20,000 nt of DNA, from the IMG/VR virus record IMGVR_UViG_3300031994_000070; one strand, written 5' to 3'. Positions within the stretch are counted from its first letter, which is position 1. Every line of letters begins with the position of its first letter. The position numbers were made by a program, and so were the translations under genes. The DNA is from an uncultured virus (IMG/VR IMGVR_UViG_3300031994_000070). Taxonomy: Duplodnaviria > Heunggongvirae > Uroviricota > Caudoviricetes. Below the pieces are notes generated by a model. That model saw only the letters and a list, made by a program, of their open reading frames with translations. It had not been told where the DNA came from and did not search any database. Below are positions 310 through 13,976 of the stretch, one piece after another.

Positions 310-891
310 TTAAAGCTGCTCTTGGCACTCTATAACTTTCTGCTCCATTTCTTCAATAATAACATCTAATAATACTGGATAGCAATTTTGAGAATCAACC
401 CCCACATGATACATAAAAGGTATGTCATTGAAGAAATTTTCGTTTTGATGTGTATGCCCATAAAGATTGCATGTACACTGTTTCAAACTCTCCTTTTGGA
501 GATTAGCGGTTAATGATGGATAATGACTTAAATAAAAATGATATTTTTTATAATGTAATACATCTGCCCATTTAACATCAATTACGTTTGTGCAGGTATT
601 ATACATCACAATTCGATTATCTGTGTCATGGTTACCAGCGATAATATGAATTTTACCATTTAATCTTTCAATGAGTTTGCGATTTGTATTCAACATCTCT
701 GGAGTACCACCGCCAAGACATACATCTCCTAAAAGATATACTATATCATCATCATGCACGACAGCATTCCAACGCTCAATGATACCCTCATTCATTTCTT
801 GGACTGATTCAAATCCACGGGGCTTGTATATAAATTCTCTATCGTGATTAAAATGTAAATCGCTTGTTACAAAAATCATACTATTCCTCAT
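310..891 (-). CDS. calcineurin-like metallophosphoesterase
   Basis: Motifs SDLH, LGD, GNHD, HYP, GHTH in canonical order; overlaps the stop of the upstream kinase. Confidence 0.9.
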   Translation of the reverse strand: MRNSMIFVTSDLHFNHDREFIYKPRGFESVQEMNEGIIERWNAVVHDDDIVYLLGDVCLGGGTPEMLNTNRKLIERLNGKIHIIAGNHDTDNRIVMYNTCTNVIDVKWADVLHYKKYHFYLSHYPSLTANLQKESLKQCTCNLYGHTHQNENFFNDIPFMYHVGVDSQNCYPVLLDVIIEEMEQKVIECQEQL

Positions 892-1354
892 TAATTACAA
901 ATACTTCATCGAATCCTTCTTCTATTGAAGGCGGTATCATTCTATTAAACATACCAGTAATCGCATATGGCGGCACGTGTTCTCTACCTGTTCTACCTTC
1001 ATTACGTTTTAATGAAGTTTCTAATGGCGTTTTAACCCAAATGGCATATACATGCTCATAGGTGCCACCTTTTCGAGCAATGGCTTTTAATAATTTATTT
1101 CTTGTGCTAGGTGTTAAATTAGTCTGGTCTGCAATAACGTGATAACCATTTAATAAATTATCACATATATCTCCTACAAATTTGCGATAAGTTTCATCTT
1201 CTTTATCAAAATAACTCTCATCATCTTTTAATAAAGAAAATCTAATCGCATCTCTTGATACCCATTTAGTTTTGGGATGCTTATCGACATAGTATTTAGC
1301 AATTGTTGATTTGCCGGACGCTGGCTGTCCGCAAATTAAATATAAATTACTCAT
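881..1354 (-). CDS. P-loop kinase, AAA_33 / polynucleotide kinase-like
   Basis: Walker A GQPASGKST, SRDAIR, ADQTNLT..R and lid RNEGR motifs typical of Pnk-type kinase domains. Confidence 0.85.
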   Translation of the reverse strand: MSNLYLICGQPASGKSTIAKYYVDKHPKTKWVSRDAIRFSLLKDDESYFDKEDETYRKFVGDICDNLLNGYHVIADQTNLTPSTRNKLLKAIARKGGTYEHVYAIWVKTPLETSLKRNEGRTGREHVPPYAITGMFNRMIPPSIEEGFDEVFVINEE

Positions 1355-5244: not shown

Positions 5245-5280
5245 AAAACCCCTCGGTATAACCGAGGGGTTTATTTTTTT
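5245..5280. terminator. bidirectional intrinsic terminator between convergent genes
   Basis: 12-bp stem AAACCCCTCGGT/ACCGAGGGGTTT with A- and T-tracts on either side. Confidence 0.85.
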
Positions 5281-6508
5281 AGCTATGATGTTTCATTAAA
5301 TACTCTGGAGAAACGCATTTAAAAGACCTTACTCCGTCAAAAGACCTGAACACAATTCCTTCTTTCATTTTTCCATTGATGCGAGAAGTTTCGCTATTAA
5401 CATAATCACGTAACTCCTCAATAGTATCGGGTAATGTATAATTTGTATCTAGTAATGGTACTCCTGGTAATCCATAGATAGATAAGAAGGTATGCATTGC
5501 ATTTGGATTTAAACGATGATGAGTACCATCTTTATATCCAAAAATTACATTGAAAATTGCTAATTGATGGTTATTTAAACCATAATCATTATCTTGAATA
5601 CCTTTACCATAAGTTTCACCTTGAATAGTGATATACTCATATTTAGGTTCGGTGTCTAAAATATTAGTAAGCACTTGCTCAATATGATATTTGTCGCTCA
5701 TTTCTGTATATACGTTAGTATCATAGAAACCTTTTTTAGATGGTTTATCAAATGCGATATTACGAGAGCAGACTAAATATTCATATTTAGGGGCAAATGG
5801 ATTATGATTTCTTTTTAAAGTAAAAGTGGTAGAAGTGCCATCAATTTTTTCAGTTGCCATCCAAGGTGTTTTATCTTCTAATACCCAAAGCATATTTTCC
5901 ACACGCTCTTCATCGGTTTTTTTAACCCAAGCTGGCCAACCTCTTTTATCTTTTTTACGCCCAAAGAACACGAAGAGTAATTTTTTACCCCATTTACGTT
6001 TCATTAACCAATAGAATGGTTGATGTTTAAATAATTCTTTGTGGCGTTGTGCCATAGAATAATATTTATCAACACCTCTGCCTTTACGTTTGTTATCTTC
6101 AGCCACCGCATATGTAACTCCTAACTGTTTAGTTAAGAAACGAGATTCATCGTCTAAACGGTGCGCCACGCCATCAGTATCATAAATCGCTTCTGCGTCA
6201 GCAGTCCAACCAAAATTTTCAGCAGACATTAATAAACCTTGAGATAAACTTTTGCACATTTTTTGTGTTTTGATTTTATAATGTTTGCTAACTAAAAATT
6301 CCATATTGGTAAAAGGTTCTACCTCTGGTAATTTAGAGTCAATTTCAAAATAAATTGCTAAATCATTAGGTTTAAACTCACCTTTACCAACTACAACTGT
6401 CCAGCCACCGATATGCGCCAGCTCAACCCTATCATAGTTAGGAATTGGAGTTACATTATCAATTTTAATAATATATGCTAATTGTCTTACTTGTTTAGAA
6501 TCTAACAT
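5279..6508 (-). CDS. ATP-dependent RNA ligase, Rnl2/DRB0094-like, with N-terminal OB-type domain
   Basis: Motif I TEKIDGTS, IQGETYG, EGIVF and terminal FKCVS; N-terminal IPNYDRVELAHIGGWTVVV..IYFEIDS typical of the DRB0094 family. Confidence 0.9.
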   Translation of the reverse strand: MLDSKQVRQLAYIIKIDNVTPIPNYDRVELAHIGGWTVVVGKGEFKPNDLAIYFEIDSKLPEVEPFTNMEFLVSKHYKIKTQKMCKSLSQGLLMSAENFGWTADAEAIYDTDGVAHRLDDESRFLTKQLGVTYAVAEDNKRKGRGVDKYYSMAQRHKELFKHQPFYWLMKRKWGKKLLFVFFGRKKDKRGWPAWVKKTDEERVENMLWVLEDKTPWMATEKIDGTSTTFTLKRNHNPFAPKYEYLVCSRNIAFDKPSKKGFYDTNVYTEMSDKYHIEQVLTNILDTEPKYEYITIQGETYGKGIQDNDYGLNNHQLAIFNVIFGYKDGTHHRLNPNAMHTFLSIYGLPGVPLLDTNYTLPDTIEELRDYVNSETSRINGKMKEGIVFRSFDGVRSFKCVSPEYLMKHHS

Positions 6509-10450: not shown

Positions 10451-10481
10451 AAAAAAAATAAGCCCCCTAAAAGGGGGCTTA
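10451..10481 (-). terminator. intrinsic terminator ending the ncRNA operon
   Basis: TAAGCCCC...GGGGCTTA hairpin followed by U-tract on minus strand. Confidence 0.85.
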
Positions 10482-10532
10482 GCGGAATGTTAACGCGTTC
10501 CCATCTCTTTTGCGTTAAGCATCACATGGCGG

Positions 10533-10609
10533 TGGTCGGAGTAGGGGGATTTGAACCCACGACCTTCCGGTCCCAAGCCGGGCGCTCTACCAAACTGAGC
10601 TACACTCCG
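10533..10609 (-). tRNA. tRNA-Pro(UGG)
   Basis: CGGAGTG acceptor, CT-TGG-GA loop, GTTCAAATC, ACCA. Confidence 0.95.
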
Positions 10610-10695
10610 ATACGTACCCAACGGACTCGTCGTAACACCAAACCTCCGTCAGTTGTAGACTTACTACCATAAATTGGACTTCTCTTACGAGCGTG

Positions 10696-10751
10696 CAGAA
10701 TTTTTAGCATTACCCACCTCGCGCCACGTGGAGGCAAATTCTGTGCGAGGC
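10696..10751 (-). ncRNA. minimal HDV-like (theta-type) self-cleaving ribozyme
   Basis: P1 GCCTCGC/GCGAGGT (G1-U wobble), J1/2 A, P2 CAGAATTT/AAATTCTG, P3 GCC/GGC, L3 TCCACGT, P1.1 CC/GG, vestigial P4, J4/2 CTAA with catalytic C. Confidence 0.88.
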
Positions 10752-10830
10752 TGGAGATGTCGGGATTCGAACCCGAGTCCGCGACAGTTCACTTTGGATT
10801 TAAGCCACGTCGAACGCCCATCGCATCCCC
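10752..10830 (-). ncRNA. mini-tmRNA (tRNA-like domain only, no tag ORF)
   Basis: 5' GGGGATG...TTCGAC and 3' GGAC-TCGGG-TTCGAAT-CCCGA-CATCTCC-A; G3-U70 and A73 Ala identity; P2a CGTGGC/GTCGCG closed by an 18-nt loop; no encoded CCA. Confidence 0.75.
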
Positions 10831-10877
10831 GTATATCGTGACGTGGCGATTGACCACTTATCGCCACGGTTACTTAA

Positions 10878-11162
10878 TTAAATAAGAATGTCAAAAAACG
10901 GAAAATAGGGCTTTTTGACACTATCTGACCATGACATATGGAATGAGCCATAGTCTTTTGTAAAAGCATTAAGAAGCTCATAAGCATGTGCCTGAGCCTG
11001 TTCGACGGCTTTAAAGGCATCTTCTACCTCTTTGGCTCTTGCACTTCTCTGCTCTTTAAGTTTCTCTTTTTCTTTTCTGGCCTCAACAACCGCCTTTTCA
11101 GCTGCCTTGAGAGCCTCTTCAGTGTCATAAAGTTTTTTTGTTTCGTCGCTATAATACTTCAT
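10878..11162 (-). CDS. hypothetical coiled-coil protein
   Basis: 94-aa ORF, AAGGA RBS, Ala/Glu/Lys-rich helix. Confidence 0.8.
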   Translation of the reverse strand: MKYYSDETKKLYDTEEALKAAEKAVVEARKEKEKLKEQRSARAKEVEDAFKAVEQAQAHAYELLNAFTKDYGSFHMSWSDSVKKPYFPFFDILI

Positions 11163-11251
11163 AAATATCGTCCTTTCGTTATTTATTGTTAAGTTCCTGC
11201 ACTTAACTAAAGTTAGCTATATATAAACTACGTGGTCGATAGTTGATATAC

Positions 11252-11328
11252 TGGTGCGTCCAAGAGGATTCGAACCTCCACTCTTGGGTTTCGTAGACCC
11301 CTACTTTATCCAGTTAAGCTATAGACGC
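11252..11328 (-). tRNA. tRNA-Arg(ACG)
   Basis: GCGTCTA/TGGACGC acceptor, CT-ACG-AA loop, GGTTCGAATCC, ACCA. Confidence 0.92.
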
Positions 11329-11333
11329 ATAAA

Positions 11334-11943
11334 ATTGAGAGAACCATTGTATATTTAAAATTGAGCCTTCGCCCTACCTCAGTTACCTTCAGTTATGGTC
11401 TGTCAATGGGGAGATTAGCGCGTGTACGGAGTAGCTAATTCCGTCCAACTAACCCCAGGCCGCCCTCGCCCGAAATCCCATGAGAGATTGATTACTCCCG
11501 CCTTTCACCTACCGTTCGCATATTTACGTGTTCTTGTACCCTATATAAGAACGGAATCTGTCCAATCAACGTGCCGCGTTAAGCTACTTGGATGTGCGTG
11601 CGAGGTCTCATAGTAGGTCATTTCTCCTACGTCTCGGCACAAACGATTTGTTAGCATTTCCAAGGTTTGACTAGTTTGCTACGCTAACCCTAACTTGGAT
11701 TCTTCCCCACAGGGGCGTCTATTGCATCGTCGACTTCACGCACTACATTTAACTGCGATAACTGACAGCGCTGCCACTTCAGGTACGTCCTATTCAGGAC
11801 TCCTTTTAATAGGTCGCCCTATTAAAAACGACTTCTTTTCAAAGTATCCTTATCAATCCATCGTCTGCTCCGCAACACCTCAGCATAACTGGTTTAGTTA
11901 CTCTGCACTGAGTTAATATTAAATACACAATGCTTCTCTCAAT
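11334..11943 (-). ncRNA. large structured ncRNA (~610 nt), ROOL-like candidate
   Basis: 29-nt terminal inverted repeat (26/29 identity), many internal helices, GC-richer, no credible ORF, strong promoter upstream, tRNA 5 nt downstream; family name inferred from size and context only. Confidence 0.7.
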
Positions 11944-11969
11944 ATTTATTTGTCATTCTTTATATATAT

Positions 11970-11998
11970 ATTATAGCAAAAATTTTTAAAATAGTCAA
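11970..11998 (-). promoter_or_regulatory. strong sigmaA promoter of the ncRNA operon
   Basis: TTGACT-17-TATAAT with TG extension. Confidence 0.85.
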
Positions 11999-12001
11999 AT
12001 T

Positions 12002-13830: not shown

Positions 13831-13976
13831 TGGCGCCTCGAGTAGGATTCGAACCTACAACCTATCGGTTATGGAGCCAGAGGTGAGTTACGTTCCTCAC
13901 ACCTTGGGAGCGACCCAATGCACTACTTTATACGACTCTGACACAGCCGATTGCTCTACCGTTGAGCTATCGAGGC
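13831..13976 (-). tRNA. tRNA-Asn(GUU) interrupted by a 71-nt tRNA-shaped insert
   Basis: 5' exon 13976-13943 (GCCTCGA...ATCGG-CT-GT) plus 3' exon 13871-13831 (T-AA-CCGAT...TCGAGGC-G-CCA) join into a perfect 75-nt tRNA-Asn with G73. Confidence 0.88.
13872..13942 (-). ncRNA. tRNA-like intervening element
   Basis: Acceptor GTCAGAG/CTCTGGC+T+CCA, D-like GTAT/GTGC, TTGGG/CCCAA arm, T-like GTGAG/CTCAC; loops non-canonical. Confidence 0.8.

Follow-up and report, generated by a model that had tools for sequence, protein, structure and literature searches.

Theta ribozymes are minimal ribozymes of the hepatitis delta virus (HDV)-like type that were found with an RNArobo motif in gut Caudoviricetes, where they are associated with tRNAs (Kienbeck et al. 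2024, PMC10879173). In that account, 58% of the occurrences are no more than 5 nt away from the 3′ end of a tRNA, with CCA encoded in only 4.5% of those tRNAs, and theta-bearing phage genomes are strongly enriched in both tRNA adenylyltransferase (20.6%) and DRB0094-family RNA ligase (54.5%). Mg2+-dependent cleavage, which is lost in C-to-U mutants, was shown there for four theta ribozymes. A second described system is the tag-less phage transfer-messenger RNA (tmRNA). The tmRNA of mycobacteriophage DS6A has been termed 'TLD only' (TLD, tRNA-like domain) by Hudson, Lau and Williams 2014 (PMC4131195), a statement repeated in PMC11915505, and the former paper, citing Mao et al. 2009, relates strong tmRNA inhibition by a TLD-only molecule, perhaps via SmpB titration. 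Here we analyze a 20,000-nt stretch of an uncultured member of the Caudoviricetes (IMG/VR record IMGVR_UViG_3300031994_000070; this whole stretch is termed the window), in which a predicted theta ribozyme directly follows a TLD-only mini-tmRNA.

Theta ribozymes and TLD-only phage tmRNAs have each been published already; what is new is their pairing, for which we found no description in the literature. As judged from its placement, the theta ribozyme most likely makes the 3′ end of the mini-tmRNA. We consider it likely, with good confidence, that an active theta ribozyme cuts behind this RNA, which would subsequently undergo end healing, CCA addition, charging and SmpB-dependent action.

A theta-type fold directly behind a tag-less mini-tmRNA

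Parsing the minus strand at this site yielded the nested double pseudoknot that defines theta ribozymes, with a 7-bp P1 starting from G1, a P2 that joins the J1/2-side strand to the 3′ end, a 3-bp P3 and a 2-bp P1.1 (Table 1). GUAAUG alone stands between P1.1 and J4/2, in keeping with the P4-less class, and the first position of J4/2 carries the C of the active motif rather than the A, G or U of the control motifs. The column of this base, C10707, is invariant in 18/18 aligned theta ribozymes, and its catalytic role would follow from the C-to-U inactivation of the four theta ribozymes in PMC10879173. The element fits exactly the segmentation given in the supplement of that study (P1, J1/2, P2, P3, T, CC, NNNN, P3′, P1′, GG, L4, CTAA, P2′), and its L4 and J4/2 strings, GTAATG and CTAA, equal listed rows. 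The window sequence itself, as well as the allele found at the related locus L132 (see below), is absent from the supplement tables.

The published association criterion is a tRNA 3′ end within ±5 nt; here G1 lies at offset 0 from A73, and the upstream tmRNA-like domain is not called by tRNA finders. A complete 56-nt nested double pseudoknot at these coordinates, with its G1 directly after A73 of the mini-tmRNA, had been put forward in an earlier note made from the DNA letters, and both points hold: all helices and core bases are present, and A10752 is followed by G10751.

The mini-tmRNA displays the UUCGAC and GGAC elbow signatures and a canonical T arm, as expected for a tmRNA-type tRNA-like domain, while the message domain and the pseudoknots are replaced by a 6-bp stem with an 18-nt loop, leaving no tag. 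The tmRNA family RF00023 matched it with 48.1 bits (gathering score 47) upon deletion of 308 model positions; ARAGORN called neither a tRNA nor a tmRNA at this position, and no tag. We weighed the possibility of a permuted or two-piece tmRNA as well, but discarded it because both acceptor strands, 5′ and 3′, lie contiguously around the short stem-loop.

Model scores and covariation support the fold

A descriptor script for the whole fold gave one match in the window (both strands) versus none in 100 first-order Markov random windows. When viral contigs were scanned for theta ribozymes by means of a core pattern, at least 118 loci emerged. Among the matches listed, ARAGORN put the 3′ end of an RNA no more than 5 nt from G1 at 46 loci with a tRNA and at one with a tmRNA, and called nothing at 71 loci, 14 of which show an imperfect P1. 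A covariance model, R1, was built from 16 tRNA-linked 56-nt theta ribozymes with the window element left out, and it matched this element end to end (positions 1–56) with 58.0 bits and an E value of 2e-14; this was the sole significant match in the window, the runner-up reaching 10 bits. The pattern used to collect the training sequences derived from the conserved core of the window element, and only sequences with a perfect P1 were retained; the match in the core and the P1 pairing of 100% therefore arise partly by construction, whereas P2, plus the P1 of the window and of L132, do not.

Covariation was assessed on 18 sequences. In the pseudoknotted structure 92.2% of the cells were paired, versus 64.8% in shuffles, and the observed pairing was reached by 0/500 shuffles, a count that is not to be equated with a probability; sliding the partners by 1–3 columns reduced the pairing to 32–44%. 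Changes on both sides were observed for 6/7 P1 pairs and for 8/8 P2 pairs. A MAFFT alignment of theta ribozymes of unequal length (A1) placed P1 out of register, and equal-length sets were used instead. The minimum-free-energy z-score of the 135-nt precursor was −0.06, which is not informative for the element because the free-energy fold ignores pseudoknots.

This z-score, together with Rfam HDV matches that stay below gathering, is what could be held in favor of a mere chance resemblance to the HDV-like fold. Such a coincidence is contradicted by the descriptor scan, the R1 score, the covariation and the L132 allele, and we regard it as extremely improbable. The helix parse, the R1 score, the covariation and the supplement segmentation agree on the theta type already claimed for this element, and by sequence and structure the 56-nt element joins this class as a genuine new member.

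Two unrelated ribozymes at one base behind the same RNA

L132 equals the window over 610 nt ending at G1, bar one base at mini-tmRNA position −1, and then diverges completely from ribozyme base +2 on, with identity returning ~50 nt before tRNA-Pro. At the same base behind the unchanged mini-tmRNA, L132 opens a theta ribozyme of its own, likewise 56 nt long, with P1 GGUUAUC/GAUAACC, P2 UAAUAGCA/UGCUAUUA and P3 ACC/GGU, which scored 65.5 bits with R1. A further relative, L133, shows one stem change compared to the window, from G.U to A-U. The presence of two unrelated, fully compensated ribozymes at one base behind one RNA argues strongly for selection on the cut after A73; the pair of alleles amounts to a natural swap experiment.

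These alleles also bear on whether the fold is still active. An inactive relic that no longer cleaves, with enzymes of the host (RNase Z and exonucleases, for instance) making the 3′ end, would be compatible with the wide range of rates of published minimal HDV-like ribozymes, extending to 0.0022 per min for drz-Mtgn-4 (PMC10879173). Nevertheless, all helices and invariant core bases are intact, and L132 has another fully compensated allele at this very site, rendering a relic very unlikely.

In L132 the mini-tmRNA and tRNA-Pro are separated by an insertion (L132:3064-3783) in which a ribosome-binding site and a gene for a 212-aa GIY-YIG/NUMOD1 homing endonuclease come directly after the theta ribozyme. 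From this arrangement it would seem that such ribozymes can be carried along by endonuclease cassettes. A His-Me/HNH-type gene lies directly downstream of another tmRNA–theta pair (L007, see below). Along these lines, an endonuclease together with a theta ribozyme could have invaded the 3′ boundary of the mini-tmRNA and displaced its CCA and trailer, the window cassette having lost its endonuclease gene. The ribozyme would then keep the invaded gene usable, like a self-splicing intron; the cleavage would be the same as in our preferred explanation, and only the reason for its presence would differ. Besides the divergence of L132 from base +2 on and the L007 gene, such an origin is favored by the closest mini-tmRNA homologue among the matches listed (L068), which ends in CCA and is devoid of a theta ribozyme. 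However, among the matches listed, 57 unique theta ribozymes are followed by 330 nt of sequence or more, and only 4 of these have a recognizable endonuclease gene within 200 nt; tRNA regions of phages often contain endonuclease genes anyway, and the window harbors no endonuclease gene of such kind. Likewise, among the matches listed, 53 of the 71 unique mini-tmRNAs have neither an encoded CCA nor a theta ribozyme. Taken together, we consider the invasion by a mobile cassette possible but rather unlikely.

Theta ribozymes recur behind full-length phage tmRNAs

A recurrence scan of viral contigs, using a pattern in which only the T loop, the UCCA/G junction and P3/L3 were fixed while P1 and P2 were left free, yielded 11 loci, comprising ten full-length tmRNAs (295–565 nt) and one tRNA-Ala. 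Nine of these tmRNAs scored 56–70 bits with RF00023 and one 46.9 bits, and the ten tmRNA–theta loci correspond to six distinct sequences. Two further pairs, L136 (tmRNA 82.4 bits, tag AKNNYRPVLMAA) and L254, bring the total to 12 contigs, on which eight distinct full-length tmRNAs of phages have a theta ribozyme directly after A73, and in three of the eight (L001, L007, L136) ARAGORN predicted a tag reading frame. Across 12 parsed sequences, i.e., the 11 loci and the window, P1 is paired 7/7 in all and P2 comprises 6–8 bp, with differing letters, and the A73/G1 junction is the same in 12/12. L254 was the single match among species-representative genomes. As it bears a Saccharibacteria metagenome-assembled genome label, we considered a cellular tmRNA with a theta ribozyme; this candidate was dropped, since its genes are phage-like (GIY-YIG, dNMP kinase, ThyX and many family-less frames).

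The eight tmRNAs, the L132 allele and the common junction all fit 3′-end formation and are thus in line with the maturation of a tmRNA-like RNA envisaged in the earlier note. The motif search for TLD–theta pairs that it had proposed added the eight full-length tmRNAs, while the pairing with a mini-tmRNA was confined, in a metagenome scan, to the lineage of the window. With tmRNA and mini-tmRNA, theta ribozymes would gain a second substrate class, and phage tmRNA genes that lack CCA could have their 3′ end defined with no need of a host nuclease. A tRNAscan-based pairing would put the tmRNA cases among the 526 non-tRNA-associated theta matches of PMC10879173, and tmRNA-type substrates account for a small part of these published "orphan" matches.

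The full-length tmRNAs also speak to a reading in which the cyclic-phosphate end is final, blocking CCA addition as well as 3′ exonucleases and leaving the mini-tmRNA as an uncharged, stable SmpB sponge. The 20,000-nt window, where no gene for a CCA-adding enzyme was seen, would suit such a permanent decoy. Yet the same junction occurs in the eight full-length tmRNAs, three of them with a predicted tag frame, and such RNAs need charging; the mini-tmRNA retains G3.U70 and A73; and theta-linked tRNAs, suppressors included, must be charged (PMC10879173). We consider a permanent decoy improbable and favor cleavage followed by healing and charging.

Theta-like elements were also observed in other settings. 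At L211:669-1072 (minus strand) a GOLLD-like match (71 bits, below gathering) is followed, ~7 nt beyond its 3′ end, by the start of a theta ribozyme. L155 has a ROOL RNA and, ~300 nt downstream of it, a theta ribozyme, the two being separated by a tRNA. L137 and about 17 similar loci (L138, L141 and L144 among them) show the core theta pattern (GCCTCTACGTGGGG...GTGCTAA) with a 7-bp P1, a long J1/2 and no tRNA upstream; this repeated sequence family may represent a different HDV-like subgroup.

Absence of an encoded CCA marks the ribozyme-linked RNA

The window comprises 14 tRNA-like genes, and the mini-tmRNA alone lacks an encoded CCA, as had been claimed for it. CCA follows all 12 ARAGORN tRNAs as well as a 13th tRNA detected by Rfam only (13976..13834), so that 13/13 tRNAs have an encoded CCA, and none of them carries a theta ribozyme. 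The accompanying remark on recoded phages does not apply to this one: 0/13 tRNAs are suppressors, and under table 11 long frames stay open. The 13th tRNA (13834-13976, minus strand; Rfam 59.5 bits, CAU anticodon context), which was not called by ARAGORN, contains a ~70-nt structured insertion in the anticodon loop that matched no Rfam family, with a whole-gene z-score of −3.3.

A comparable distribution was found in G005, the phage record behind L136, whose proteins are 35–50% identical to those of the window phage. Of its ten tRNA and tmRNA genes, eight tRNAs have CCA and no theta ribozyme, whereas CCA is missing from the tmRNA and from an amber-suppressor tRNA(CUA). Behind the tmRNA stands a theta ribozyme scoring 48.6 bits, and behind the suppressor a weak theta-like match of 16.3 bits with R1 (L256:9980-10031). 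The latter fold has an altered core, with a changed L3 (UUCUCGU) and no GG in J1/4. The G005 pattern, together with the ligase, kinase and phosphoesterase of the window (Table 1), hints at a regulated route.

The mini-tmRNA belongs to a family common in phage contigs

A pattern for short TLDs gave at least 120 loci in viral contigs. Among the matches listed, a perfect 7-bp acceptor beginning with GG was present in 88 loci, corresponding to 71 unique RNAs of 59–85 nt with a mode of 79 nt, and CCA is encoded in 18/71 of these RNAs, the remaining 53 having none. Tag-less mini-tmRNAs of ~79 nt are hence common in phage contigs, with at least 71 unique sequences. Out of 20 loci tested, 18 were above the tmRNA gathering score, one reached 41 bits and one was not listed, and no known ribozyme family was detected with Rfam downstream of the mini-tmRNA in 20 loci checked. 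RNAalifold on 63 mini-tmRNAs recovered the T arm alone, because the 5′ halves were misaligned. By analogy with the account in PMC4131195, the mini-tmRNA of the window would be alanylated, bind SmpB and inhibit trans-translation.

Locus context and candidate end-healing enzymes

The coordinates of the ribozyme, the mini-tmRNA and their surroundings are compiled in Table 1.

Table 1 Features of the mini-tmRNA–theta locus and candidate end-healing genes in the 20,000-nt window
Feature	Position	Strand	Details
Theta-type (P4-less HDV-like) self-cleaving ribozyme (predicted)	10696..10751	−	56 nt; read from sequence, helix parse
P1	10751-10745 / 10722-10716	−	7 bp, G1.U wobble
P2	10743-10736 / 10703-10696	−	8 bp
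P3	10735-10733 / 10725-10723	−	3 bp
L3	10732-10726	−	UCCACGU
P1.1	C10731, C10730 facing G10714, G10715	−	2 bp
J4/2	10708-10704	−	GCUAA; linker UAAU in place of P4
Presumed catalytic C (C75 equivalent)	10707	−	opens J4/2 CUAA; from position in fold
Predicted scissile bond A73 (10752) / G1 (10751)	10751..10752	−	from fold and HDV-like cleavage 5′ of G1
TLD-only mini-tmRNA	10752..10830	−	79 nt; acceptor GGGGAUG/CAUCUCC with G3.U70, A73 at 10752
9-bp hairpin between orf94 stop codon and mini-tmRNA 5′ end	10842..10868	−	identical in L132, L133, L134
orf94	10878-11162	−	94-aa frame between tRNA-Arg and mini-tmRNA
ROOL RNA	11344..11936	−	RF03087, 286.6 bits; upstream, same orientation
Promoter-like site	11970..11998	−	TTGACT-17-TATAAT, 11/12 matches, TG extension; consensus scan only
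tRNA-Pro(UGG)	10533..10609	−	encoded CCA; 86 nt downstream of ribozyme
Terminator-like hairpin after tRNA-Pro	10481..10459	−	
RNA ligase, DRB0094 type	5279..6508	−	PHA02142 OB domain (PF21189) + PF09414; TIGR02306 101 bits, cut-off 151
Polynucleotide-kinase-like P-loop kinase	881..1354	−	AAA_33, phrog_505; overlaps phosphoesterase gene start
Metallophosphoesterase	310..891	−	Metallophos_2, phrog_547

The promoter-like site, which could drive them, and the terminator-like hairpin enclose the ROOL RNA, tRNA-Arg, orf94, the 9-bp hairpin, the mini-tmRNA plus theta ribozyme and tRNA-Pro, and these may form one transcript. Neither end of the ROOL RNA in the window carries a theta ribozyme. The orf94 product is rich in charged residues, probably helical, 100% identical in L132 and matched no Pfam, PHROG or NCBIfam family. 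Contigs of four metatranscriptome runs covered ROOL, tRNA-Arg/orf94 and tRNA-Pro, with positions 10666-10807 outside and hence uninformative on cleavage. The runs holding the stretch are sheep, goat or unspecified gut metagenomes, which agrees with the published gut bias of theta ribozymes. A blastn search of window positions 10500-12000 against cultured phages matched tRNA-Pro only.

Among the genes in Table 1, those of the ligase, the kinase and the metallophosphoesterase are our candidates for healing the 2′,3′-cyclic phosphate end; a PDB sequence search with the metallophosphoesterase returned distant phosphodiesterases only. G005 has the same gene order as the window, namely the tRNA/tmRNA array, ligase, kinase and phosphoesterase.

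Proposed maturation and the observations that weigh against it

HDV-like ribozymes cleave 5′ of G1 and leave a 2′,3′-cyclic phosphate. Established knowledge of such ribozymes would have the element fold co-transcriptionally and cut the bond A10752/G10751, releasing the 79-nt tag-less mini-tmRNA that ends at A73 with a 2′,3′-cyclic phosphate, whereas the ribozyme would stay on the downstream piece. By the same analogy with established tRNA and tmRNA biology, RNase P would make the 5′ end and AlaRS would charge the RNA through G3.U70. Before charging, the end would have to be opened to a 3′-OH, for which the phage metallophosphoesterase and kinase pair is a candidate and a host enzyme an alternative, and CCA might be added by a CCA-adding enzyme, probably that of the host. 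Finally, we propose that the mini-tmRNA binds SmpB and competes with or replaces the host tmRNA, without a degradation tag being added.

Several observations weigh against this reading, besides the partly constructed core match of R1. A theta ribozyme was found behind the mini-tmRNA in 0/120 viral loci among the matches listed, and a metagenome scan for the combination returned only the lineage of the window, with three loci; the arrangement must therefore be regarded as rare. L133 and L134, whose sequences are almost the same as that of the window, possibly do not count as independent cases. The Rfam models HDV_ribozyme (RF00094; 29.2 bits, gathering 50) and HDV-F-prausnitzii (RF02682; 27.1 bits, gathering 44, E 0.0057 in a 601-nt stretch) both score the element below gathering, because P4 is missing while P1, P3, L3 and J4/2 do align: in the Rfam alignments, 1 nt of the element stands where the HDV models have 15 or 30 (P4). 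At gathering thresholds, Rfam gave no ribozyme match in the window. Neither a CCA-adding enzyme nor an SmpB gene was seen in the 20,000 nt, and tmRNA–theta phage records contained PolyA_pol in 1/3 and SmpB in 0/3 cases. Phosphoesterase homologues occurred in 3/5 tmRNA–theta and 3/5 tRNA–theta records versus 0/4 records of theta-less mini-tmRNA phages, but the numbers (6/10 vs 0/4) are small and uncorrected for phylogeny and habitat.

A timing function of the cut is speculative. In such a scheme the cut would act as a lock, keeping the mini-tmRNA here, and the tmRNA and suppressor tRNA in G005, inert or as uncharged SmpB decoys until the phage kinase and phosphoesterase, which share a conserved block with the tRNA/tmRNA array, open the end for CCA addition, whereas ordinary tRNAs with their encoded CCA would be ready after processing by host RNases. 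We give this idea a low probability; if it is true, cleavage and end healing would constitute a phage-controlled switch for the interference with ribosome rescue. More generally, the coincidence of CCA-less RNAs with theta ribozymes and the conserved ligase, kinase and phosphoesterase block translate into a testable pathway of cutting, healing, CCA addition and charging, which would control RNAs that manipulate host translation.

Comparison with known systems

The window element aligns with the Faecalibacterium prausnitzii HDV ribozyme family RF02682 and with RF00094 in P1, P3, L3 and J4/2 and differs from both by lacking the whole P4. CCA-less tRNA precursors are processed by RNase Z, which leaves a 3′-OH, and then by the CCA-adding enzyme. 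As in this RNase Z route, the predicted product of the ribozyme ends at the discriminator and awaits CCA; in contrast to it, an HDV-like cyclic phosphate would need an extra healing step. The word 'cyclic' does not occur in the main text of PMC10879173.

The mini-tmRNA resembles the DS6A TLD-only tmRNA as a phage gene that extends barely beyond the tRNA-like domain, has no tag frame and would be expected to interfere with trans-translation. Whereas the consulted parts of the DS6A accounts make no mention of a ribozyme at the 3′ end, a theta ribozyme is predicted to set the 3′ end of the window RNA.

The closest likeness is to the published theta ribozymes, with which the element shares its 56-nt length, the P1/P1.1/P2/P3 architecture without P4, L3 UCCACGU and the GUAAUG and CUAA strings of L4 and J4/2. 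The setting is shared as well, comprising a G1 after the discriminator, a CCA-less upstream gene, an animal-gut phage and a DRB0094-type ligase in the genome. Unlike the often recoded theta phages, the window phage shows no sign of recoding, and unlike in the published tRNA-associated cases, the RNA upstream of the element is the tRNA-like domain of a tmRNA. The use of a theta ribozyme behind a tmRNA-type RNA is in this respect a novel variation on the tRNA trimming already published.

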